NCBI GenBank assembly: GCA_963804165.1
Contig: CAWDPO010000011.1
Location: forward strand, 134,578-198,577
Origin: an uncultured delta proteobacterium
GTDB lineage: Bacteria > Desulfobacterota > Binatia > UBA9968
Reading direction: 5' to 3'
Length of the DNA stretch: 64,000 bases
Positions 50,775 through 64,000 of the stretch are shown here, piece by piece (the first letter of the stretch is position 1; the number at the start of each line of letters is the position of its first letter). Both the position numbers and the translations under genes were made by a program. The notes under the pieces were generated by a model. It saw only the letters and a program-made list of their open reading frames with translations, had not been told where the DNA came from and did not search any database.

Positions 50775-50976
50775 TCGTCCTTTAAAAATGCCGAGGCGAG
50801 GCGCACGCATCCGGTCGGGTGCCGGCGCCAGCCTTGGTTGCTCCTTCACTCCCACAATCCAAAGGCATCGAACGACGCCCGAGCCGACGCCCGATCGAAA
50901 TATGCGGGGCTCGTATCAGTTTTCATTGTCTGGCCCAGAAGCTGCCCCACTCCGCAACGATAATGTTGAGGTTTGA

Positions 50977-53064
50977 TTAGGGGTCGCGAGCGCTCCCGCT
51001 GTCCCCATCGGTAGCGGGCAAGATCTCTGTCTTCAGCGCCGGCGCACGCGGGAGCCCCGTGACATCGAGGATTTCCTGCTCGTTGAGGGTCTCACGCAAC
51101 AGCAAGGCTTCGACGAGCGCGTCGAGTTGCTTGCGATGCGCGTTAAGCAGCCGCTTGGCCTCGTCGTGGCTTTCGCCGATGATCTTGAGCACCTCAGCGT
51201 CAATGGCTTCAGCGGTCCTCTCGCTGAATGGCTTGGCGCCGGCGTACCCGTTCGCGCCGGTCAAGTAAGGATTCTCCCGCGGCGCGAGCTCTACCAGTCC
51301 GACGCGCTCGCTCATGCCCCAGCGCGTGACCATCCGGCGCGCCAGGCCGGTGGCTTGCTCGATGTCGCTTTCCGCGCCGGTCGTCTTGGTGCCGTAAACG
51401 ATCTCCTCGGCCGCGCGGCCTCCCAGCATTCCGACGATCCGCGCGCGCAGATAGGCTTCCGGATAGTTATAGCGGTCGCTGTCTGGGCGCTGATAGGTCA
51501 CACCGAGAGCTTGCCCGCGTGGCACGATCGTCACCCGATTCACCGGGTCGGCGCCGGGCACCACTAGACCGAGGATGGCGTGTCCTCCCTCGTGGTAGGC
51601 GATGCGTTCCTTATCGGCGTGGCTCAACAGAAGTGGCCGCTCGGGGCCGAGCACGATTTTTTCCAGCGCGTCCAGGAAGTCTTTGTAACGCACTTCGTTC
51701 TGCTCGCGCCGCGCCGCCAGCAGCGCCGCCTCGTTCACCAGATTCTTCAGGTCAGCCCCCGTGAACCCCGGGGTCGTGGCGGCGACTTCGCCTAAGTTTG
51801 CGTCGTTCGCGAGCGGCACGCCGCGAGTGTGGACTTTCAGGATCGCTTCGCGCCCGGTCTTATCCGGCAGGTTCACCACCACGCGCCGATCGAAGCGTCC
51901 GGGCCGCAGCAGCGCTTTGTCGAGCACGTCGGGTTGATTCGTTGCCGCCAATACGATGATGCCCTCCCGGCTCGAGAATCCGTCCATCTCGGTTAGGATT
52001 TGATTCAAGGTCTGCTCCTGCTCGCTCGAGCCGCCGATCGCCATCTGACCGCGGGCGCGGCCGATGGCATCCAGCTCATCGATGAAGACGATCGCCGGCG
52101 CTTGCTCGCGCGCCTGCTTGAAAAGATCCCGCACTCTCGCGGCGCCGACCCCGACGATCATCTCGACGAACTCCGCGGCGCTCATCGAGAAGAACGGCAC
52201 TCCCGCTTCTCCGGCGACCGCTCTCGCCAGCAGGGTTTTTCCGGTGCCGGGCGCGCCGATCAAGAGCACGCCTTTCGGGGCGGCCCCGCCCAGGCGCGTA
52301 TACTTCTTGGGATCCCGGAGAAAATCCACGATCTCGACCAGCTCGTTTTCGGCTTCGTCGATCCCGGCGACGTCATTGAAGGTAACTCTCGTATCCTTCT
52401 CCTCGTCGTAGCGGCGCGCCCTGCTTCGGCCGATACCCATGAGACCACCGCCCATCGCGCCACCCTGCTGTGCCGCCCGACGAAATAGCCAGACGTAAAA
52501 ACCAATGAGCAGCAAGGCCGGGCCAAAGCCGAAAAGAAATGTCGACCAGGGGTTTTCGCTCTCTTGAATCGGCTCGGCGCTGATCTCGACACCATGACCG
52601 ATCAAAAATGTTTCCAAACCCGGGTCTACGAAGGAGGGCAGTGTGGTCGCGAAGGTACTCACCTGTTCGGGCTGGCGCTGCGCGCCGCGAACATTCGGGA
52701 TCTGCGGCCGGCCGTCTGGCGGCGCGCTTTTTTCACCGCTGCGCGGGTAGGTGATCAGCGTCCTGAAGCGGCCCGTAAGGGTCTCACCCCGGGTGTAGAT
52801 CGCCGAGACATTGCGCTTCTTAACCTCTTCCTTGAAGAGAGTGTAGGGCACGGTGACCGGTGCTTTGGGGCCCGGTATGAGGAGCCGCACGAGCAAGAAG
52901 TTAGCGAGCAAGACGAGAACGAACCATAGCCACGCCTTGCGCGGCGGCATTTTCGGCTGCCCGGTAGCCTTGGCGGCTCCCCGACTGTCGGACGGCTGAA
53001 CGCGCCCGGGCGCCGCGGAATTCGTGTTCCGCTGCGTCTGCTGTCCCGTCGAGCTCATGGTCAC
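50977..53064 (-). CDS. ftsH: ATP-dependent zinc metalloprotease FtsH
   Basis: Two TM helices, [29 protein letters not shown] zinc motif. Confidence 0.95.
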
Positions 53065-53236
53065 CTCCTCAACCGTAATAACGGCAGAAATTTTTGCGGT
53101 CGTAGGTGACGACTACCACCTGCGCCAACTGGCAACAAGGTCATTGCTAACAGAACGCGCGCACACGGTAGGCGACGGCTATTGACGATGGACGATCAGA
53201 AATATGGCAGGGTGCGTCAGTGGGTCTGGTCAGTGG

Positions 53237-53265
53237 TGTTCAGACTTGCCTAACTCTACTAACTC
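53237..53265 (+). repeat. 28-bp motif, copy 1
   Basis: TGTTCAGACTTGCCTAACTCTACTAACTC. Confidence 0.75.
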
Positions 53266-53461
53266 AACTTCACTGACGATGCGCTAAGACGCGACGACAG
53301 AAAGCAAAAAGCGGACTTGACCCTATTTCCATTCCCTCAAACCCAACTCTCGATATCGTTGCTCGATTCTAAGATTCGCAAGAATAGAAAGCCTGATCCT
53401 GAGCATCCCCCTAAGCATCCCCTAAAAAACTTCGTGAGGTGCCCGGGTTTGGCGGACATAA

Positions 53462-54647
53462 GGAATCTCTGAACAAGCGCTTCAGTAATGTGGTCTAATA
53501 TGGAAAAGCAGCAAGACGGACAATGGTAGAGGAGGAAACAGATTGAAGGAGCAGACAACGTTTGCGAGTTTAGCGTGGGCGGGAAAGAAAAAGCAGACCA
53601 AGCGAGAGAAGTTTTGTATGAGATGGATCAAGTGGTGCCGTGGGAGAAATTGCTGGCGTTGATCGAAGCGCACTATCGCAAAGCGGGCAGTGGACGGCGA
53701 CCGATGCCGTTGGAACGGATGCTACGGATATACTTTGTGCAGCAGTGGTACGGGTTGTACGATACCGGGATGGAAGAAGCGTTGTACGACATCGAGTCGG
53801 TATGGCGATTTGCAGGGATAGAGTTGGGGGAAGAAGAAATTCCCGATGAGACCACGATTTTAAACTTTAGCCACTTACTGGAAAAGCACCAGTTAACCGA
53901 GAAGCTGTTGGAAGAGGTCAACGGGTATTTGAGCGAGAAAAGGCTTTTGCTCAGACAAGGCACGATCGTAGACGCCACGCTGATCGGTGCGCCGTCCTCG
54001 ACCAAGAACAAGGACAAGAAACGCGACGGGGAGATGAGTTCGACCAAGAAGGGCAACAACTACCACTTCGGCATGAAGGTGCACACGGGAACGGACAGTC
54101 AGAGCGGTTTGGTGCACACGGTCAAAGTGACCACGGCCAGTGTGCATGACAAGCAGGAGATGGAAGCGCTCCTTCATGGAGAAGAGCAAGCGGTGTTTGC
54201 CGACAAGGGTTACTTCAGCGACCAGGATAAGCGCTCAGCGAGAAAGACGGGACTATTCTGGGGCGTGTTGGACAAGGCCAAGAGCAAAAAGAGCTTGAGC
54301 CATAAGCAGCGGCGCAGAAACAGAAAACTGTCCAGTATACGGGCCAAGGTGGAGCATCCGTTTCGGGTGGTCAAGCGCCAGTTCGGCTACATCAAGACCC
54401 GGTATCGGGGATTGAAGAAAAACGCGGCACAGATCTACACGCTGTTTGCGCTGGCCAATCTGTATCGAGTGCGCCGTGCTTTGTTGGCGTAGTCCGATGG
54501 GGAGGAGCTTGGGCCGTCCACAAACGCATTGAGTGGCCAAGAAATCGAGGCAAACCCCATCCGATGTAATCACCGAGCCGCTTAGTCAACATGAAACAGT
54601 TTTAAATAATCGCCCCCTTCCAAATAACGTAGTTATTCAGAGGTTCC
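53462..54647 (+). mobile_element. IS5-family insertion sequence (about 1.19 kb)
   Basis: IRL GGAATCTCTGAACAA (53462-53476) and IRR TTATTCAGAGGTTCC (54633-54647) match at 13/15. The flanks are ATAA and TTAA. Confidence 0.9.
53543..54492 (+). pseudogene. IS5-family DDE transposase, frameshift near 53613
   Basis: MKEQTTFASL..KQTKREKF / EMDQVVPW, IPDETTILNF, IVDAT, FGMKVH, ADKGY, RAKVEHPF. Confidence 0.88.
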
Positions 54648-54824
54648 TTAACTAGTAGACAGTTTGACCGACTCGTACCGCATGGGCGTTTGATAATTTA
54701 AAGACTGATGAATTCGATTACGATTGTAAATTCATGTTCTCCAACGGCGTGCACGGACCGGAGGGCCTCATTGAAGAACCCCATGCTTGACGGTTACTCT
54801 TGCTCCAGGGTTCAGCTGAACTCT

Positions 54825-56507
54825 TCATGCACCCACAGTTAGATCAATCCCGCCGGCGCGGAACCAGCGATAATCGTAAGGCTGCAGCTGGACCATATAA
54901 CGCCCGTGCTCATCGGCCACGCTGTCGTTTCGAGCCAGGAGATCGACCAGCTTACTGCCACCCCCCTCAGTTGCAACGGCTGCACGGTCGAGCACAATAG
55001 CGCGCGGTTTGGAAGTGAAGTTATGGCAAGTGATAAGCGTGCTCTTATTCCATTCGTAGCGCATAACAAGCACGCCGGGCTGGTCGGTTTTTAATATCTT
55101 CCAATCGCCCCAGCTGATTTCGGGGCACTCCTTGCGCATCCGAATTTTTCGCTCCATCCAGTTGAGCAATGATTGTGGATCGCGGCGCTGGTTTTCGACA
55201 TTTACGTGTGGATAGCCGTAGATTGGATCCGAAATGACCGGCAGTACCGGCCGCTTTCCGGTCGTAAACCCGCCGTGGAGCTCGTCGGACCATTGCATAG
55301 GCGTGCGCGCGCACTCGCGTTCGGGAAGCGACAGATCATCACCCAGCCCTATCTCGTCGCCAAACTGCAGCATCGGAGTACCCGGCAATGTAAATAAAAT
55401 GCTAAACGCCAGCTCGAGCTTGCGGCGATCGTTATCCAACATCGGCGCCAGGCGGCGCCGAATGCCGCGATTGTAAAGCTGCATTTCCTTTGCCGGCGCA
55501 AAGGCGCGGAACACGCGATCGCGCTGCGCCTCGGTTAATCGGCCCAGATCGAGTTCATCATGGCTGCGCAGGAAGTTTACCCATTGCGCGGCCGGCGGCC
55601 GCTTGTAGGTAGCTTCGAGCGCGCGCACGAGCGGCTTGACGTCCTCCGTTGCCAATGCATAAAAGAAACGCTGATTGACGGCAAAATTCAGCATCATTTG
55701 CAGCCGCTCGCCGTCCTCGCCAAAATACTCCATGCTCTCGTCAGGTGGGACGTTCGCCTCTGCCAGCATGATCGCGTCGCGGCGGCGCCACTGCAGGAAA
55801 TCTCGCATCAGGTGGAGCATCTCGTAGTCTTTCCTCGACTTCACGCCCGCGCCTTTTTTCTCGATCAGAAACGGCACGGCGTCCATTCGGAAGCCGGTGA
55901 CGCCAAGCTGCAGCCAGAATCCCATGACCCGCATGATCTCGCGCTGTACCGCCTGATTTGACGTGTCGAGGTCCGGCTGAAACTCGTAAAACCGGTGAAA
56001 GTAGTATTCGCCGGCAACTGAATCACGGGTCCACGTTGCTTTTTGCACTCCCGGAAATACCATTCCGGTGTTCCACTCTTCCGGTCGTGTTTTTGACCAG
56101 AGATACCAGTTCCGATACGGCGACGCCGGGTCTTTGCGCGCAGCCTGAAACCATGGGTGACGATCAGACGTGTGGTTGATAACGAGATCGACGATCACCC
56201 TCATTCCGACCTGTTCCGCGTGATTCATGAAATCAACGAACTCGCCCAGCGTGCCGTGTTTTGGATGCACGCCGTAGTAGTCGGCAACGTCGTAGCCGTT
56301 GTCGCGATTCGGCGACGGATAAAATGGTTGTAGCCATACACAGGTAATGCCGAGGCCGGCGAGATAATCCAAACGTTGCGTGAGGCCGGCAAAGTCGCCA
56401 ATCCCGTCGCCATTGGAATCGATGTATTTCTCGACATCGAGACAATAAATGACAGCGTTCTTGTACCAAAGGTCGTCAATAGAGGGTCGCGGCAAATTGT
56501 CGCTCAT
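54825..56507 (-). CDS. GH13 alpha-amylase family, trehalose synthase (TreS)-like
   Basis: LWYKNAVIY, GDGIGDF, DLVINHTSD, FRMDAVPF, AEAN, FLRSHDELD, RGIRRRLAPML, RTPMQW. Confidence 0.9.
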   Translation of the reverse strand: MSDNLPRPSIDDLWYKNAVIYCLDVEKYIDSNGDGIGDFAGLTQRLDYLAGLGITCVWLQPFYPSPNRDNGYDVADYYGVHPKHGTLGEFVDFMNHAEQVGMRVIVDLVINHTSDRHPWFQAARKDPASPYRNWYLWSKTRPEEWNTGMVFPGVQKATWTRDSVAGEYYFHRFYEFQPDLDTSNQAVQREIMRVMGFWLQLGVTGFRMDAVPFLIEKKGAGVKSRKDYEMLHLMRDFLQWRRRDAIMLAEANVPPDESMEYFGEDGERLQMMLNFAVNQRFFYALATEDVKPLVRALEATYKRPPAAQWVNFLRSHDELDLGRLTEAQRDRVFRAFAPAKEMQLYNRGIRRRLAPMLDNDRRKLELAFSILFTLPGTPMLQFGDEIGLGDDLSLPERECARTPMQWSDELHGGFTTGKRPVLPVISDPIYGYPHVNVENQRRDPQSLLNWMERKIRMRKECPEISWGDWKILKTDQPGVLVMRYEWNKSTLITCHNFTSKPRAIVLDRAAVATEGGGSKLVDLLARNDSVADEHGRYMVQLQPYDYRWFRAGGIDLTVGA

Positions 56508-56869
56508 GGCAAAGCATTCCCTTCCTCAATATGATCATGAGCTGAGCAACCTCGGTAGAACTGCTCAGCATCCATATGGAAAACGGGTTACTAACACGAT
56601 AATCAGTCCAGCACATTACAGATCGCTGATCTGCATGCAGACAGCAGAGCCGGCCTTCAGCAGCTCATCAGTCCTCTCTCAAATAAGAATATAGACATTC
56701 CACCGACGCGATTGCCATATGTGTTCTTTAACGACCTCCGATTTGATACCGAACAGAATCACCGCCTGGTAGTCCGTGTGCTTCCCTATGCCGCGATTGC
56801 CAAACAGCAAAGGGCGGCGCGTATGCGCCTGAGATCGGACGTCCGGCGGCAGGGATGAAGATCATCAGG

Positions 56870-56908
56870 GGGGATTTGGGGATTTGGGATGGGGATTTGG
56901 GGTCAGAC
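56870..56908 (+). repeat. GGGGATTT tandem copies leading into a GGGGTCAGAC terminus
   Basis: GGGGATTT GGGGATTT GGGAT GGGGATTT GGGGTCAGAC. Confidence 0.6.
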
Positions 56909-57020
56909 ACAATCACTACTCTAAGCTGTCCTTGCTTACGCAGCTGAAGAGCTCTATTGTTATCGTTGCGCAACTCTCTCAACCAGATTCCGCAAAACAA
57001 GGTTCGATTAGGAGGTTTTT

Positions 57021-57209
57021 ATGTACAGGATTTTGTGCGACCGAACGCCGGCTCGCGAACTCGGTTCAGGCCTGACCTGGTTTATGGAAGACGGCAAGAT
57101 CGTCGAATTCTCTACGCCGGAAGAAGCCGGGGCTATGGTAAAAACGTTAAGTGAGGGGCCCAGAGCCGCGACGGTTAAGTACACGGCGAAAGAATTTAAC
57201 CTCGAGTAA
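57021..57209 (+). CDS. Hypothetical 62-aa protein
   Basis: AGGAGG RBS 5 nt upstream of the ATG. MYRILCDRTPARELGSGLTWFMEDGKIVEFSTPEEAG... Confidence 0.6.
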   Translation: MYRILCDRTPARELGSGLTWFMEDGKIVEFSTPEEAGAMVKTLSEGPRAATVKYTAKEFNLE

Positions 57210-57342
57210 GATCAACTCAGCCAAATATGCTCTGAGCCAAGCCGGCGTCGGAGCGGCCATTCGCTGTCCGACCGATAACCAATCTAGAGCTAGGCGACGA
57301 GCGATCCAGTTTACCCTTCGGCGACTATAGTCGATGGACCGA

Positions 57343-57370
57343 AGTTAATAGAGTTAGGCAAGTCTGACAC
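57343..57370 (-). repeat. 28-bp motif, copy 2
   Basis: AGTTAATAGAGTTAGGCAAGTCTGACAC on the + strand. Confidence 0.8.
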
Positions 57371-57516
57371 GAGCCTTCGACCCGTGGAATATTAAAAGAT
57401 TTGCAATGCGCAATCGCCGAAACTTACGCTACTCGAATGCGGCGACAAACATGGCGAACTGGGATCGCGCATCACTCGGAGGGCTGAGGTATCTGTAGTG
57501 CGAGAGAATGAGCGTA

Positions 57517-57543
57517 GGTTAATAGACTTGGGCAAGTCTGACA
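57517..57543 (-). repeat. 28-bp motif, copy 3
   Basis: GGTTAATAGACTTGGGCAAGTCTGACA on the + strand. Confidence 0.75.
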
Positions 57544-57564
57544 TGCTGGACCACCTGGAGTGAT

Positions 57565-57615
57565 GTTGCCCTCCGAAGGCAGAGATCACAAGTTCGAATC
57601 TTGTCGGGTGCGCCA
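57565..57615 (+). tRNA. 3' fragment of tRNA-Arg(CCG) (partial, pseudo)
   Basis: Anticodon arm TTGCC-CTCCGAA-GGCAG, T arm ACAAG-TTCGAAT-CTTGT, acceptor 3' strand CGGGTGC-G-CCA. No 5' acceptor strand or D arm upstream. Confidence 0.85.
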
Positions 57616-57627
57616 GACTTCAAATCC

Positions 57628-58692
57628 TCACTCCGGCGCATACACCACGATGCATCCACGGCAGGCCAACTCCTTCGCTGTCGTGGCCACATAGACGCGA
57701 TTGTTGGCGAGACTCACCCCGAGCGAGCGCGCGCCATTCGACGTCGGTAGCTGCTGCAGGCCCTTTTTCGTCTTGGTGTCGACCACCATCAAGTTTCCAC
57801 CTGAGGTGGAATGGTAGTACTGGCCGAGTTTGCGATTCACCGTCGAGCCGCCGTTGCCGCCGTATCCCGTGAGATTTGTTTCCACCTTGCCGGCCGCGAT
57901 ATCGAAAATCACCATGTCACCGCCGGGCTTGGGAGACGGGCCGTGGGCGCTGCTGCAACCCAGGAAAATGGTCGAGTCCGAGACGATGGAGAGACTATGC
58001 GGATGACACCCGAGTTCGTGCAGCTTCACGAGCTTGCCGTTTTTGGGATCGGTCTGCGCCAACAATCCCTTGGTGGTGTCCGCGCGTGATACCGGGATGG
58101 CTGTGTAGAACATGCCGCTTGGCGCGTGATACGCGGAACGCTCCAGGTTCTCGCCGGATTGCGGAATAGGGATCTTCGCCAGGATTTTGTGATCGGGCGC
58201 AGTCGAGATGAAGCTGAGGAACGGCGGATCGTCGTTCGAATTGGCGACGATGACGACGCCGATGTCTTCGCCCAAGGCCATCCCGTTGGCGCGCTTCGTT
58301 CCACCAGTGGCGACCGTCCCCGCGATCTGGCCGGTCTTGGTATCGATCACCTTGATCGTGCTGTCGCCGTCGCTCACCCATACTTCCGCGCCGACTACGA
58401 CAACACCATTCGGTCCCGAGGCATCGCCATCCTTCAACCGTCCGACGAAGCCCGGTATCCGCGAGACGAATTTGTCGGTCTTGGTATCGAAGACGACAAC
58501 GGATTTGTTGGTCTTGTCGGCGAGATAGCCAAGACCCGTCGTTTGGTCGATGGCCATAATGCCGATGTCGGTGATCGGATCACCGGGGATTGATATTTCT
58601 GCGACCTGTTTCAGGCCTCCGGCCTGCGCGGGACTAGCGGAGATCATGGCGGCGAGTGCTGCAACGATCACGGACGTGGAACGGGACTTCAT
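57628..58692 (-). CDS. Secreted YncE/YVTN-like beta-propeller protein
   Basis: Signal peptide (MKSRSTSVIVAALAAMISASPAQA). Repeated VVVFDTKT / IKVIDTKT / VVDTKT blades. Confidence 0.8.
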   Translation of the reverse strand: MKSRSTSVIVAALAAMISASPAQAGGLKQVAEISIPGDPITDIGIMAIDQTTGLGYLADKTNKSVVVFDTKTDKFVSRIPGFVGRLKDGDASGPNGVVVVGAEVWVSDGDSTIKVIDTKTGQIAGTVATGGTKRANGMALGEDIGVVIVANSNDDPPFLSFISTAPDHKILAKIPIPQSGENLERSAYHAPSGMFYTAIPVSRADTTKGLLAQTDPKNGKLVKLHELGCHPHSLSIVSDSTIFLGCSSAHGPSPKPGGDMVIFDIAAGKVETNLTGYGGNGGSTVNRKLGQYYHSTSGGNLMVVDTKTKKGLQQLPTSNGARSLGVSLANNRVYVATTAKELACRGCIVVYAPE

Positions 58693-59250
58693 CGGCTCCC
58701 TCCCTGTATCTTTTCTTGGCAAGCATTGGCGACACATTATCACGATCGGACCGATGGACGCATCACTAGAACAGAGAGAGCCATAATGAAAGCCGCCTGA
58801 GCTACAAGCGAAAGCTGTGGCAGCACGCTAGCCCAAGTCAATGTTGGTTGATTTAGAATGGCTTAGATACGGTGGGGCTCATTGTCCATTGCTCGCCAAG
58901 TGGCGCAGGCTTTGCGGAGAGTATGCGGGGTAAGTTGCGGAGAGTGTCAGTCTTTGCTTCTGTGATATTTAGCACTCCCTATCTGTTTGCAGCGATTTTC
59001 TTTAACAAGCAAATAAACAAGGCCTGACATGTTTGCCTCGTTTGCCTCTGACCGTTTGCCTTCTTTGAATTCACGAAAATCGCGCATCGCTCGCATGGAT
59101 TGATCTGTGGCATGGGAACTGTGAAAGTGTGAAGCCATATAATTCCTTCCTGTCGCGGTCAGTTTCAGATCCCGATTGCCGCTTGATTGGAAATTCACCA
59201 CCCACAGGTTTGCCTGCTGTAACCAACGTTTTAGTAACCAGAGACCCCTA

Positions 59251-59367
59251 TTGAAAAATCCGCTCATCCAACTCACCTCCGTTCAGGCGCGCAGAATCTG
59301 GCTGCATGCCCAGCGCCTGGACACCACCGAACCCTTCGGCTCCGGCCCGAAGGCCACGCCGGCAGCA
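59251..59367 (+). pseudogene. N-terminal fragment of a YcaQ/AlkZ-like winged-helix DNA glycosylase family gene
   Basis: LTSVQARRIWLHAQRLDTTEPFGSGPKATPAA, cut just before the expected LGYVQID motif. Confidence 0.6.
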
Positions 59368-59770
59368 TTTCCGAGCAATGTTTCCGCCAACAGGATCTCC
59401 TGACCGTGCCCTCGCCTATGTATTTATGACACTCGTCCATTCTAAGAAAATACGCGAGGGAGGTTACGAGCTGTATAGGCGAGCCCGTACGAATATGCTC
59501 TATGCATACTGTATGTCGGTTCTTTATAGATTTCGCCATTTGAAAAAGATTATCGGGATTGCTAGTGAGCCGCCTCCGAAACCGGGCGATCATGAATTAT
59601 TGTCGGAAGACATGATCATGATTGAGGCACCCACGGAGTGGTCGCAGGAACTCGTAGCCGAACTCGACCAATGGTGCAAAGGCATGGATATTATGAGAGA
59701 AGACCGCACTCGTAGGCGCAACTTTCATGCAACCGAGTATCCCGAGGAGCCGGGTAGATCGACAAGTTGA
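59366..59770 (+). pseudogene. C-terminal fragment of an unrelated larger hypothetical protein
   Basis: AYVFMTL..RRARTNMLYAYC..KKIIGIASEP..SEDMI..EYP. Lower GC, fused directly to the YcaQ-like piece, no convincing start. Confidence 0.45.
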
Positions 59771-59876
59771 CATCGGCAAAAGGAAGTCAAGTCCGCTTTT
59801 AGCTATTGACGCGCGACGAATTGAAAATTCAGAGAGTCTCTGCTTTCCGAGTCGGACCGTTTTTCGGAAGCGATCT

Positions 59877-59940
59877 GGGGCCAGGTCTTACAATCACACA
59901 TTTTCGCAATGCAAGACGCGATTCCACTATTCCGACCCCA
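59877..59940. repeat. About 50-bp mini-element with GGGGCCAGGTCTTACA / TGCAAGAC inverted termini
   Basis: GTCTTACA pairs 7/8 with TGCAAGAC. The right flank is imperfectly duplicated (CGATTCCACTATTC / CGACCCCATCATTC). Confidence 0.5.
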
Positions 59941-60334
59941 TCATTCGCGCGCGCGAATCACCTTGCTATTCAGCTTGCCCCATAGGTTAGAGTTTGCGGG
60001 TTTAAGGCTGCCGTTGTCCGAGTATCTTCCGGCGACGAATCGTCTGAACACTGTACCGAACGCGAATTCTCGATGAGGACAAACTCAAATACGGACCACC
60101 GATTAGACTGAGATTGCCGGCTTCCGTCTATCGCAGATTCCCTGCGGTTGACGCAGAGACACATTAAGAATCAAGAGTCCCAAGAATTAGCGCCGCGTGC
60201 CCAAGGGAGTACGTTTCCGATTCGGGCCATGACGTTGTTATGCGACGGAAATTTTATTGAGCAAACAGCCGTTGCACACGGCAGAATAACCAACAGTAAG
60301 TGATTATTGGTGCCGTGGAGGCGAGGTATAGTCA

Positions 60335-61561
60335 ATGCCTTATCGAGCATTTGTTTCTTCGACTTTTCTAGACCTGAAACAACACAGGGCGCATGTCATA
60401 CACGCCTTGCGTACGGCAGGTTTCATCGTAGACCCTATGGAAGATTGGACTGCGGACAGTGATGAGCCGAAGAAGTTCTCGCAGAACAGAGTTGAAGGTT
60501 GCGATCTGTGTGTGTTGCTTGTTGCGTTTCGTCGGGGGTACGTGCCCGAAGGAGAAAAATTGAGTATCACACAGCTCGAATATGAAACCGCCCGCAAACA
60601 GGGAATTGACGTTCTGACGTTTATACTCAAGGAGGGGGAACCTTGGTCGCCCGAGTTCAATGAGCTGGACAAGGACGCTGAAATCCGGCTGTGGCGGAAA
60701 GACCTCGAGAAGTATCATGGTGTTCAGGGTTTCAGTTGTGAGCCCAGTTCGATTGAAATGACCGGTGCTTTAGGACGTTGGCTAACAAAGAAAATCACGC
60801 ATCGAAAACGAGAACCCGGAACCTTTTTCCAGGACCGGTTAAAGGATGACTCCCCGGCTCCCGAGCTGGTGGTGATTCCAACCGGAACCTTTCGAATGGG
60901 CGATATTCGCGGCAGCGGTAGCGCTAATGAGAGACCAGTCCACACAGTTTATGTTCGGGGCGACACTGCCATAGGGCGATACGAGACCACTTTCGATGAA
61001 TATGACCGATTCGCTAGATCTACGGGTCGCGCTTTACCGGATGATAATCGGTGGGGACGAGGGCGACGGCCCGTAATCAATGTTTGCTGGTACGATGCGG
61101 TAGAGTATTGTCAGTGGCTTTCTCAGCAAACCGGAAAGCGCTACCGTCTGCCCACTGAGGCTGAATGGGAATATGCTGCTCGGGCGGGAACTGAAAGCTG
61201 CTACTGGTGGGGTGAAGACGGGACTTCCCGAATGGCAAATTGCTACGGCGGAGATAGTAGCTGGGCTGGAAAACAGACCGCACCGGTTGGCTCGTTTGAG
61301 CCAAATTCTTTCGGCCTCTATGACGTCGCAGGGAATGTTTGGGAATGGGTTCAAGATTATTGGCATGAGAATTACAAAGGAGCGCCCGAGAATGGATCAG
61401 CTTGGCAGCATGAAAACGACGGCGATTTCAGACAGCGTGTGATCCGGGGAGGGTCTTGGAATGCCAAACCAGAGTTTGTACGTTCGTCATTCCGGCTCCA
61501 ATTCAACCCGGGAAATCGAGGCTACGGGATAGGCTTTCGCATTGCCCACGATATCGAGTAA
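60335..61561 (+). CDS. DUF4062 domain fused to a formylglycine-generating-enzyme (SUMF1/FGE-sulfatase) domain
   Basis: N-terminus: FVSSTFLDLKQHR, RRGYVP, SITQLEYETA. C-terminus: FRMG, PVINVCWYDA, YRLPTEAEWEYAARAG, GLYDVAGNVWEW, RVIRGGSW, GFR. Confidence 0.9.
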   Translation: MPYRAFVSSTFLDLKQHRAHVIHALRTAGFIVDPMEDWTADSDEPKKFSQNRVEGCDLCVLLVAFRRGYVPEGEKLSITQLEYETARKQGIDVLTFILKEGEPWSPEFNELDKDAEIRLWRKDLEKYHGVQGFSCEPSSIEMTGALGRWLTKKITHRKREPGTFFQDRLKDDSPAPELVVIPTGTFRMGDIRGSGSANERPVHTVYVRGDTAIGRYETTFDEYDRFARSTGRALPDDNRWGRGRRPVINVCWYDAVEYCQWLSQQTGKRYRLPTEAEWEYAARAGTESCYWWGEDGTSRMANCYGGDSSWAGKQTAPVGSFEPNSFGLYDVAGNVWEWVQDYWHENYKGAPENGSAWQHENDGDFRQRVIRGGSWNAKPEFVRSSFRLQFNPGNRGYGIGFRIAHDIE

Positions 61562-61649
61562 ATCTAGCTAAAAGTGCCGGAGGCTTCGTGCCAGACGGAT
61601 CGCGCGGCCACGGCGATCGCCTATCGCGTTTAACCCCGGGAGAGCAAGA

Positions 61650-61678
61650 GTGTCAAACTCGCCTAACTCTATTAACTC
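61650..61678 (+). repeat. 28-bp motif, copy 4
   Basis: GTGTCAAACTCGCCTAACTCTATTAACTC. Confidence 0.75.
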
Positions 61679-61824
61679 ACCACCAGTGAGGAGGCGAGCA
61701 TTGTACATGAGCTTCTATGGAGGCTTCACCGATTGTCGTGGATGTCGATCGCGTTTGCTTAGGCGGCCGTGTCCCCGCTCCGTTTCCGGTGGACGCCGCC
61801 GGTTTCGTTGGGTATATTTCGGCT

Positions 61825-62013
61825 ATGGCTGCACATGATCACGATCATAAGGAGGGCTCCAACCTTTCCGAGATGGACCTGCGGGTGCGCGCGCTCGAAA
61901 CGATATTGGTCGACAAGGGATATATCGAATCCGCCGCGCTCGATCGCATCGTCGAGCTTTATGAAACTAAAATCGGCCCGCATATCGGCGCGCAAGTTAT
62001 CGCCGAGGCGTGA
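61825..62013 (+). pseudogene. nthA: Nitrile hydratase alpha subunit, N-terminal fragment
   Basis: HDHDH..LSEMDLRVRALETILVDKGYI..ALDRIVELYETKIGPHIGAQVIAEA. It stops at the position of the conserved W, and the metal-binding CxLCSC motif is absent. Confidence 0.85.
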
Positions 62014-62022
62014 AGAAATAAA

Positions 62023-62122: not shown

Positions 62123-62140
62123 TTCCAAGGACACTCGGGA

Positions 62141-64000
62141 CATGAGAAAAAAATCCCCGGCGGCTCAGGGGCGTAGTATATATAGGAGCATACTGAAGTT
62201 CAGAGCAAGAGCCGGGCTCTTATAATAGAAGTCAGACGTGAAGCGGAGCGGACGAGGAGAAAAGAGAGTGGGGATTGAACAAGGGAGATTGGCGGGGTGT
62301 GAAGCGGCGGTTTTGAGTGAAGCTGAAGGGGAAGGCAGGCCGAAGTCTGAAGCCAGGTTTAGCAAGCCGCGCAACGAAGTGATCGACCGCGAGCAGCTGT
62401 GTTGGCGGCGGGTGGATGTAGAGCGGCTGATCGGGGAAGAGCATGCGGCGCGAGCGATCTGGGAATTTGTTGGGCGGCTGGATATGAGCGGGTACCGAGA
62501 AGAGGTTCGAGCGGTAGAGGGCAAAGCGGGACGGCCCGGGTGGGAGCCGCGGTTACTGATCAGCCTGTGGGTGTATGCGTACAGTCAAGGAGTCGGATCA
62601 GCGCGAGCGATCGAAGAGTTATGTGAATGGGAGCCGGCCTACCAGTGGCTGACGGGATCAAGAGTGGTCAATGCCCATACGCTATCGGACTTTCGCGTCA
62701 AGCACGACAAGGCGCTCCAAGGATTGTTCGTCCAGATCCTGGGGCTGTTGAGTGCCGATGGACTGATCACGCTGGAACGGGTGATGCAGGACGGGACCAA
62801 GATTCGAGCGAAGGCGGCCCAGGATAGTTTTCGGAGAAAAGAGCGAGTCGAACAAGCGCTCAAAGAAGCCAAGGAGCAAGTCGCCGCGCTCCAAGCGCAG
62901 AGCGAAGAGGAAACCAGCCGGCGCATGGCCACGGCATGCCAGCGAGCGGCCCGCGAACGCCAGGAGCGGTTGGAGCAGGTGCTTAAGGAATTTGAGCAAC
63001 TGGAGAAAGAAGGCAAGGACAAAGAGCACAGACGAGTCAGCACGAGTGATCCTGAGGCGCGAGTGATGAAGCAACCTGACGGTGGCTTTGCGCCGAGCTA
63101 CAACGTGCAGATCGACACCGATGCGAAGAACTGTGTGGTGGTGGCGGTGGGAGTGGTGCAAGCGGGCAATGACTTCGAGCAATTGGAGCCTGGGATTGAC
63201 CGAGTGCAACGGAACCAAGGCGAGACCCCTAAAGAGGTGGTCACCGACGGAGGATTTGTCAGCCGAGATACGATCGTGGCGATGAAGCGGCAGGCCATAG
63301 AGTACATCGCCCCCTGTGTCGATGAGGCGGGCAAGGGACAGAGTTCCTATGACAGCCGCGGCGTGAGCGCCGAGTATCAAAGTTCCCAGTTTATCTACGA
63401 TGCCCAGAGCAATAGTGATCGCTGTCCGCAGGGAAAGATACTCTCGTACGAGGGCAAAGAAGAGCGCCACCTGCAGCTGAGCTAGCGGTATCGAGCGCAG
63501 AGATCGGACTGCGAGGGATGTCCGATGAAGAGCCAATGTTGTCCTGGGAATCGAGTGACGGGGCGATCGGTGCATCGCAGCGAAGAGTTGGCCGAAGTGG
63601 CTGAGTTTCGCCACAAGATGCAGAGCGAAAGAGCGCGCGAGATCTACAAAACCAGAGCGCAGGTGGCCGAGACGCCCAATCTGTGGATCAAGGCGAAGTT
63701 TGGGCTACGCCAGTTCAGCGTGCGCGGGTTAGTCAAGGTGGGGATGGAGGCGTTGTGGGCTTGTCTAACTTATAACATCCGCATCTGGATTCGTCTGTGC
63801 TGGAGACGAGCGGCCGCGGTGATGCAGCCTGCGTAGAGAAAGAGGAGAAAAAGGACGTGTAGCAGGGAAAATCGGCCAGTTTTAAGCCGCTCAACGGTTT
63901 GCATCAGAATAATTGCGGCGCAGGTAGATTTTTTCTAAAAAGAAAAAACACCGACGCTTAGGATCAATCCAGATTACGCCAAATCAATTTTTTCTCATGA
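62141..64000 (+). mobile_element. IS1182-family insertion sequence (right end at or just past the window edge)
   Basis: CATGAGAAAAAAAT at 62141 and ATTTTTTCTCATG at 63987-63999 are inverted repeats around a DDE transposase. Confidence 0.85.
62238..63836 (+). pseudogene. IS1182-family transposase with an in-frame TAG at 63483-63485
   Basis: GRPGWEPRLLISLWVYAY, HTLSDFR, QDGTKIRA, STSDPEARVMK, SYNVQ, TDGGF, CPQG. After the stop, in the same frame: CEGCPMKSQC and IYKTRAQVAETPN. Confidence 0.88.

Follow-up and report, generated by a model that had tools for sequence, protein, structure and literature searches.

TIRtrons, or TIRYTs, were named by Di Nocera et al. in 2013 (PMC3733652) for genes that resemble REP-associated tyrosine transposases (RAYTs; REP, repetitive extragenic palindromic sequence) and lie between long terminal inverted repeats (TIRs) instead of REPs. 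According to the main text of that paper, the motif GGGGWSAS occurs in the majority of TIRs, not in all of them, and some TIRs belong to moderately abundant repeat families with members found as singles, dimers or groups. Quentin et al. in 2018 (PMC6006769) placed most TIRYTs in TnpA-Y1 subclass 2.1, described in the text as having a C-terminal helix-turn-helix (HTH) domain (HTH_23, HTH_28) or a Bac_DnaA_C-like domain, the Y motif Y---NP and no REP-like structures nearby; according to the same text, RAYT group 1 as defined by Bertels et al. 2017 (PMC5581495) falls almost entirely within this subclass. Group 1 is described in PMC5581495 as the most similar to insertion sequences (ISs) bar group 6, with flanking 16-mers at ~12 per replicon. 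TIRtrons or TIRYTs probably correspond to subclass 2.1; within the passages of the literature searched, the two terms are used only in PMC3733652 and PMC6006769. Here we consider a 64-kb stretch (64 000 nt; hereafter the window) of the genome of an uncultured delta proteobacterium, contig CAWDPO010000011.1, positions 134 578 to 198 577, in which a 28-nt site occurs four times. A sequence-only reading of the window had assigned the site to an undescribed system. We conclude, with a probability of about 85%, that it is the TIR of a TIRtron-type element of ~930 bp, a kind named already in 2013 (PMC3733652), with a RAYT-like Y1/HUH transposase, and that the copies in the window are orphan solo TIRs.

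We call the family of this site F1, a second TIR family from the same region F2, and the window's genome, assembled in 46 contigs with the window on contig C11, G000. The consensus of the F1 site is 5'-GTGTCAGACTTGCCTAA[C/G/A]TCTA[C/T]TAACT; below, [C/G/A] is referred to as the variable base and [C/T] as the Y position. The site and a possible part of it are located in the window as follows.

53236..53264, + strand: F1 solo TIR, copy 1, with a 1-nt insertion (GTGT-T-CAGAC) and C at the Y position (the CTACTAAC variant); profile E 1.3e-8
57285..57297, no strand given: possible half-site of 13 nt (TAGAGCTAGGCGA), a partial match, not significant alone, 58 nt from copy 2
57343..57370, − strand: F1 solo TIR, copy 2, with 0 mismatches to the consensus; profile E 1.7e-10
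57517..57544, − strand: F1 solo TIR, copy 3, with 4 mismatches, of the G type, 6-bp hairpin possible; profile E 5.8e-9
61650..61677, + strand: F1 solo TIR, copy 4, with 2 mismatches; profile E 1.5e-8

Pattern and profile searches together confirmed the four copies at the places and in the orientations that the sequence-only reading had listed. The exact-pattern search of the window, with up to 3 mismatches, detected copies 2 and 4 only (0.00 expected from 100 shuffles), and a profile built from ten genome copies detected 4/4 (E 1.7e-10 to 1.5e-8). The next-best profile match in the 64-kb window had E 1.9; there is thus no further copy, and none in the first 53 kb, as had also been claimed. The same profile did not pick up the half-site at 57285. 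Across the genome, 7 matches to its 13-mer (two positions degenerate) were counted, 6 of them inside true copies (by reading); ~0.9 would be expected genome-wide by chance. The half-site may be a remnant of a site.

A 25-nt core of the site was found with up to 3 mismatches 11 times in G000 (reversed-pattern control, 0), and the profile search returned 16 copies at E<=0.0042, a number that rises to 20 at E<0.2. Of the copies found by the profile, 11 fall in three clusters, on C8, C28 and C11; the rest are singles and one doublet. A Y1_Tnp gene or its stub, the protein starting M(P)RH.RVHAEGLLYHV, follows four copies in G000 at a distance of 2–18 nt. Among 90 genomes of the family, the motif is present, at low copy number, in 39 genomes from 12 of 23 genera, with zero matches to the reversed control (the count includes the unpublished genome G060). 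Over 124 occurrences of the motif, the Y position was C 90 times and T 33 times. The clusters on C8 and C28 are paralogous and only ~67% identical, too far apart for breakpoints to be placed. TctC-like binding-protein genes repeatedly adjoin the outer TIR side on C8 and C28; in genome G050 this place is taken by an NMT1-like binding-protein gene. Also on C8, at 137252 (L012:4253-4283), a solo TIR is located 5 nt from the start of a 295-aa open reading frame (ORF). This ORF corresponds to only the C-terminal part (AMP-binding_C + PP-binding) of a protein resembling non-ribosomal peptide synthetases, with a 1174-aa paralogue on C28; the TIR is therefore at the point of gene truncation.

The parent element was seen in related genomes, where inverted pairs of the motif recur ~900 nt apart. 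Its layout is a TIR, 17 nt (17–22 nt to the start codon), an ORF of 287–294 aa, the stop codon, 2–10 nt and the inverted TIR, ~930 bp in all. Seven units from seven genomes align tip to tip over their full length, each with a 28-nt TIR at either end; the TIR-delimited unit contains no gene other than the Y1 gene. The elements of G025, a genome of the window's genus, and of G073, which like G071 and G072 belongs to another genus, show 93.8% identity across 930 nt, beginning with GTGTCAGAC and finishing with GTCTGACAC, and their flanks are unrelated; the FtsH gene beside copy 1 is only 76–93% identical within the window's genus. Such likeness across genera between unrelated flanks indicates that the unit moved between lineages as a TIR-delimited piece. 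No target-site duplication was seen (by eye) at six intact elements.

In G000 itself, the search for a Y1/HUH gene flanked by the motif, proposed along with the sequence-only reading, returned a full gene on C8 between two inward-facing copies (Pfam Y1_Tnp 3.8e-10). That reading had expected terminal sites acted upon in trans, and indeed the enzyme is encoded outside the window; it had also said that it would fall should the motif match the inverted repeat of a catalogued IS; the motif is in substance an IS inverted repeat, the TIR of a ~930-bp IS-like element. The C8 element is the sole full-length copy in G000, and it is degenerate: a one-base gap shifts the frame, so that the ORF ends at 247 aa and the C-terminal domain is lost, and its left TIR carries two indels. 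In the window, tblastn gave no match below E 1.4 for a remnant of the F1 transposase and none below E 0.77 for remnants of F1 or F2 transposases. As the only cognate gene in G000 is frameshifted, present activity is unlikely unless a paralogue substitutes, and the window copies are probably fossils now.

The pairing between the TIR and the enzyme was assessed at 80 loci that encode transposase homologues in the genome collection. The TIR flanks 7/7 homologue loci with identity of at least 71% and one locus at 57%; it flanks 0/72 loci at 47% or below. The pairing is clade-specific. A plasmid collection searched for transposase homologues held only matches of 40% identity or less, annotated as 'transposase'.

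Short tandem repeats that copy the TIR tip were observed just outside several elements (L064, L068 and flanks in L062/L063). Next to the G073 element (L064:1519-1589) there are three 21-nt units containing GGCAAGTCTGACAC; at G030 (L068:1490-1610) a 48-nt duplication includes a whole TIR, and at G071 the units are of 7 nt, such as GAATTCC x3. Slippage or aberrant end processing may have produced them.

The intact 287-aa transposase matches Pfam Y1_Tnp at 3.5e-12, and with the NCBIfam model REP_Tyr_transpos the intact relative reaches 84.9 bits against a cut-off of 80. The HUH motif NHFH (N59 H60 x H62) and Y119, the catalytic-type tyrosine of RYIHLNP, are invariant in 11 aligned sequences, six paralogues among them. 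In the AlphaFold model of the whole protein, confidence is limited to the core and the C-terminus. The best match of the core in the PDB is 4er8_A, the E. coli TnpA-REP bound to a REP hairpin (E 3.2e-7); the next are the ISDra2 and IS608 transposases (Foldseek E 2.5e-5 to 1e-3). Modelled alone, the last 85 residues (pLDDT, the predicted local distance difference test, 84.6) resemble DnaA domain IV from its complex with DnaA-box DNA (3pvp_B, TM-score 0.79, root-mean-square deviation 1.2 over 72 columns; 1j1v_A, TM 0.74); Pfam assigns only weak HTH matches to this part (E 0.07–0.23). The transposase, as modelled, is thus an HUH core followed by a C-terminal HTH domain with a DnaA-domain-IV-like fold.

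The likeness to TIRtrons extends over several features. The family has a RAYT-like Y1/HUH gene with long non-REP inverted repeats at short fixed distances from it. Its TIR also forms a dispersed family, of ~20 copies in G000 in three clusters, singles and one doublet, which is of the same order as the 12 flanking 16-mers that the text of PMC5581495 gives for group 1. There are several distinct genes per genome, each with its own TIR. The motif YIHLNP and the predicted C-terminal domain (TM 0.74–0.79) are as in subclass 2.1. On the other hand, the F1 sequence is absent from the TIRs given in the main-text passages of PMC3733652, a paper with more TIRs listed in its figures and supplements, its tip, taken with the G that usually precedes it, reads GGTGTCAG, 7/8 against GGGGWSAS (paralogous elements read GGGGTCAG or GGGGTCAA, 8/8), and the host lineage is different, since the element was found in metagenome-assembled genomes titled Candidatus Binatia, Thermodesulfobacteriota or 'delta proteobacterium'. 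Each TIRtron feature that could be tested was found in the F1 family, a member of a known, uncharacterised kind.

G000 holds 17 matches to the Y1 query. At 5/7 paralogous Y1 loci examined, inverted repeats are found 936–984 nt apart around the gene; three of these TIRs start with GGGGTCA, and one starts with GTGTCAGGCTT, close to the window motif.

Folding distinguishes the F1 site from REPs. Five folds of window-copy strands gave z-scores from −0.71 to +1.07 against shuffles, and three folds of element ends from −2.0 to +0.5. Only the G-variant copies form a 6-bp stem, of −3.3 to −4.2 kcal/mol (z −0.7 and −2.0), and no compensatory changes were seen (by eye) among the motif variants in related genomes. 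We therefore rejected a hairpin or REP reading of the TIR, as it folds no better than shuffles. REP/RAYT systems (REPtrons, REPINs) nevertheless share several traits with the F1 family: TnpA-REP (4er8) is the nearest solved core fold and REP_Tyr_transpos the NCBIfam model; two inverted copies of a repeat flank the gene, and the repeat is also scattered intergenically as singles and inverted doublets; in the complement of CTACTAAC, the majority C variant, a GTAG overlaps the foot of a possible 6-bp stem. They differ in that window copies 2–4, of the T variant, read ATAG and not GTAG, in that the F1 repeat is not palindromic and, save for the weak G variant, does not fold beyond shuffles, in the number of copies (tens in F1, not hundreds) and in the extra DnaA-like domain predicted for the F1 enzyme.

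With the IS200/IS605 elements (IS608, ISDra2 TnpA) the F1 element shares the HUH/Y1 fold, the small size and the lack of target duplication. The TnpA of IS200/IS605 has ~130–150 aa; the F1 protein, at 287 aa, is about twice as long and carries an added domain. The text of PMC6006769 describes IS200/IS605 elements as having subterminal hairpins on a single strand and lacking inverted terminal repeats, whereas the F1 ends are 28-nt inverted repeats without hairpins. REPs, IS200/IS605, DDE elements and integron attC sites were all rejected as the identity of the F1 family, which lacks their defining features.

A DDE-type IS or a miniature inverted-repeat transposable element (MITE) as the source of the inverted repeat, or else an integron attC-type site, with the Y1 gene as a passenger in either case, is an explanation that we find scarcely credible. 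Long non-palindromic TIRs are a hallmark of DDE elements, not of IS200/IS605; MITEs and DDE ISs also have TIRs of 15–30 nt and gene-less TIR-spacer-TIR mini-derivatives, and the short doublets of the F1 family look MITE-like. However, the F1 unit holds a Y1 gene only, with no DDE enzyme and no target-site duplication at the 6 intact elements, its TIR tracks the Y1 clade exactly, and its commonest derivative is a single TIR, not a pair. The boundaries of the two DDE elements in the window are 194 and 460 nt from the nearest F1 copy. As to integrons, an attC is a 57–141-nt imperfect palindrome with paired core sites, arrayed beside an integron integrase. The F1 unit has 28–29 nt with sharp edges, has no hairpin potential above shuffles, which an attC needs, and co-occurs with a Y1 gene (an integrase was not searched for in the genome). 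The sequence GTTAGGC, in which the sequence-only reading had seen an integron-type core, is present and fits GTTRRRY, a pattern of low information that occurs ~1 per 1 kb by chance; the 9-nt periodicity noted along with it is also there, as three phased sub-repeats, TGTCAGACT / TGCCTAACT / CTAYTAACT. The integron analogy does not hold for a site that is unfolded and shows no other integron feature. A general rule of 9-nt phasing was rejected as well, because paralogous TIRs are without it (by eye).

One could also take the site for a promoter, an operator or a binding site of a DnaA-like protein with a function for the host, its position at element ends being secondary. The left TIR ends 17–22 nt before the transposase start codon, so that the promoter or operator of the gene probably overlaps it; copy 4 is 39 nt before an ORF; and the three phased sub-repeats could be matched with the DnaA-box-binding type of fold in the enzyme. 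Yet no copy contains an inward sigma-70-like promoter (regional sites 5, compared with 5.5 in shuffles), copies 1–3 have no downstream gene in register, the motif is patchy (39/90 genomes) and of low copy number, its divergence at a shared locus looks neutral, and the phasing is missing in paralogous TIRs (by eye). A host function is, in our judgement, highly improbable.

Under the TIRtron reading, we propose the following mechanism. The enzyme would recognise the TIR as sequence, probably in duplex DNA since the TIR does not fold, via the DnaA-like domain; the three phased 9-nt sub-repeats are candidate boxes for this C-terminal domain, though paralogous TIRs are without phasing. The HUH core would nick and join at the TIR edges, with no target duplication made. 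Solo units of 28–29 nt would then arise by end processing, either through REP-like dispersal in trans or through precise removal of the interior, rather than by random decay.

The solos were characterized further in a metagenome set of 80 soil-type loci holding exact matches to the degenerate motif. Of its 85 distinct occurrences, 44 were classed as solos, 21 as right and 11 as left ends; 2 were accompanied by other gene fragments, and 7 were too near the contig edge to be assigned. The number of inverted TIR doublets in the 80 loci was 3. In the 61 solos pooled from genomes and metagenomes, the information content rises at TIR position 1 and is zero after position 29. With information confined to positions 1–29, the orphan unit is exactly the 28–29-nt TIR. 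The variable base is G in 16/20 left ends, giving a perfect 6-bp palindrome; the right ends have 14 G, 13 C and 3 A, and the solos 44 C, 14 G and 3 A. The solo ratio of 44 C : 14 G differs from the 16 C : 30 G of gene-attached ends with a Fisher p of 5e-5, a value overstated since the sequences are related. Sharp 28–29-nt edges and a variable base different from that of gene-attached ends argue that most solos would come from a precise process or a self-propagating lineage, not from random erosion.

The solos could instead be products of decay only: full elements whose interior was lost by ordinary deletion or recombination, with nothing moving 28-nt units. Random deletion should leave interiors of variable length, whereas the 61 solos show no conservation past position 29; the variable base of solos is unlike that of gene-attached ends; and in the metagenomes solos stand to gene-attached ends and fragments as 44 to 34.

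Several observations weigh against the TIRtron reading of the solos, and the first four of them favour decay: (i) end stubs with 45–155 nt of interior and a truncated tnpA are present in G000 (3 left, 2 right; C1, C17 and C28); (ii) internally deleted elements form a series of 931, ~400 (G045), 157 (G032) and 97 bp (G000 C24), which together with the stubs shows that deletion does yield some orphan ends; (iii) at the relic locus on C17 common to G000, G050 and G051, the TIR diverges about as fast as the flanks, which argues against selection on the TIR; (iv) 31/39 motif-bearing genomes are without the cognate gene at the search thresholds used, many of the assemblies being incomplete (the cognate transposase, at E<=1e-70, is found in 11/90 genomes, of which 8 carry the motif); (v) an empty site was sought in relatives for any solo and none was found, so that solo mobility is inferred only. 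No relative spans the C24 doublet of G000, and relatives' loci compared by BLAST with G000 likewise yielded no empty sites. Some points also weigh against the assignment of the enzyme: the frameshifted G000 protein scores 78.8 bits with REP_Tyr_transpos, just under the cut-off of 80, and the Foldseek E for the DnaA-like domain is only 9.6e-3, despite the good TM-score and rmsd. To our knowledge no TIRYT biochemistry exists; binding, cleavage sites and strand choice are all inferred. On balance, we regard decay as the sole source of solos as unlikely, though deserving serious weight, and give slightly better than even odds to precise formation of the solos by the enzyme.

Mini-elements of 77–100 nt made of two inward-facing TIRs were observed in the metagenome loci L187, L190 and L242 and at G000 C24:86600-86698. 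The three from the metagenomes have in common an unusual left arm, in which TTGCCTAA is duplicated internally; their spacers and flanks differ. This suggests that they may form a MITE-like lineage. On three metagenome contigs, a ParE toxin / Phd-YefM antitoxin gene pair is located between direct repeats of ~120 nt, each with a solo TIR, at a spacing of 1036 nt (L201:1026-2181, also L226/L227 and L248/L249); the repeats run beyond the TIR tip.

TIRYTs turn up often in genome surveys, but no bench study of them is known, and according to the published classification there is no evidence of movement. The F1 element is compact (930 bp), with tips defined to the base, and nearly identical across genera; its left and right ends tend to differ at one base, its orphan unit is a precise 28–29 nt, and its enzyme, as predicted, joins an HUH nuclease to a reader of the DnaA-box type. 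It could serve as a practical model of how an HUH/Y1 transposase could use non-hairpin, duplex-type ends. For the annotation of the window the meaning is mundane: the repeats are transposon ends.

The region of the window to the right of the FtsH gene is a patchwork in which each block has its own distribution among relatives. The blocks are an IS5 copy, an alpha-amylase-family gene, a ~330-nt block, a tRNA fragment with a beta-propeller gene, a 139-nt piece, an FGE gene, an NHLP-like ORF and a second IS. In the closest relatives only the FtsH block, 50975-53196, is shared (92–93% identity), and it breaks off 40–60 nt short of copy 1. None of the window copies is spanned by a relative, and the genus is too divergent for breakpoints to be placed at the base level. 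None of the public sequencing runs holds >21% of the region's words, and metagenome contigs cover parts only, the uncovered ones being uninformative; an exact search of these contigs for the inner flank of copy 1 found nothing.

Two copies of the F2 family are also present in this region.

53299..53323, − strand: F2 TIR, right-end form, 17/17, E 9e-5, 34 nt from F1 copy 1
59782..59813, + strand: F2 TIR, left-end form, 22/22, E 9e-8, matching the left end of the C46 element through ...GCTATTGACGCG

F2 (GGGGTCAAGTCCGCTTTTAGC...) is the end of intact TIRtrons at G000 C46:405768-406800 and C30:60475-61515; at least 16 copies were counted in the genome, among them two inverted doublets at C17:79487-79875. 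Along the window the right-end form precedes the left-end form, and the outer tips of both face the 6.5 kb between them. On one metagenome contig (soil run X1, depth 7.5), positions 53277 and 59823 are linked through eight other letters, and the 6545 nt that separate them in the window are absent; short contigs 100% identical to the region come from that run as well. The joint, on one contig only and with a 35-nt short side at 88% likeness, may represent a presence/absence polymorphism of the 6.5-kb block between the F2 arms.

The sequence-only reading had explained the patchwork by module capture or shuffling at the site. In the version we weighed, the TIRs would be recombination sites where a duplex-reading Y1/HUH enzyme cuts at the inner edge and captures or swaps the adjoining DNA, and the mosaic of the window would be the product; the transposase gene, toxin–antitoxin pairs, multi-kb blocks and possibly the 6.5-kb F2 block would all be exchangeable cassettes. 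We consider this distinctly improbable, both for the site and for the cassettes. All four F1 copies do fall in gaps between blocks of separate distribution, but these gaps are simply intergenic, and at least 5 other block junctions have no copy; for this reason the evidence for a causal link between the F1 copies and the mosaic is weak. A stretch of 4.1 kb of non-transposase DNA is enclosed by the inward-facing copies 1 and 2, solos end sharply on their inner side, and one outer neighbour gene adjoins left-end stubs with inner content that differs in G046 from that in G050 and G051. Nevertheless, no block bounded by the window copies was found as a unit elsewhere, no TIR-bounded block save the transposase element was seen in two contexts, and the relatives are too divergent for breakpoints to be compared. 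The ParE/Phd pair between TIR-containing repeats, met on three contigs, could be taken for a cassette, but its repeats extend past the TIR tip and are not TIR-specific. The joint at 53277/59823 would remove a block bounded by two F2 arms, with the limits on it given above.

The other features of the region are listed below.

53459..54651, + strand: IS5-family insertion sequence, with a DDE_Tnp_1 ORF at 53575-54492; its ends are unrelated to the motif
56919-57250: ~330-nt block without a Pfam or Rfam match, 81–88% identical in at least 8 genomes of the genus, ending ~93 nt before F1 copy 2
57551..57612, + strand: tRNA-like 3' fragment, Rfam tRNA 33.9 bits, not called by ARAGORN, anticodon loop CCG (by eye)
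61717-62013, + strand: ORF of 98 aa with a nitrile-hydratase-alpha-like N-terminal match (2.2e-9)
62138..64000, + strand: second multi-copy DDE insertion sequence, with 98% identical copies at four other places in the genome; it runs off the window

The two ISs, the copies of a second TIR family, the tRNA fragment and the pieces of genes make this region a graveyard of mobile DNA. The IS5 has four more copies at 99% identity elsewhere in the genome among the matches listed. The outer tip of copy 3 is 6 nt from the tRNA-like fragment. From the point of divergence at 57565-57567, metagenome contigs carry the normal 5' half of a tRNA (GCGCCCGTAGCTCAGCTGGATAGAGC...) in place of the window's sequence, and the homologue in G048 of the tRNA beside copy 3 is also partial. 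The beta-propeller gene next to it is 91–97% identical in many genomes of the genus, i.e. more conserved than FtsH; judged by sequence, this stretch looks like the end of an integrative element. The 98-aa ORF downstream of copy 4 is possibly the precursor of an NHLP-type (nitrile hydratase leader peptide) product, and many genomes of the genus carry its ~220-nt core (61756-62015) at 80–93% identity, often several times over.

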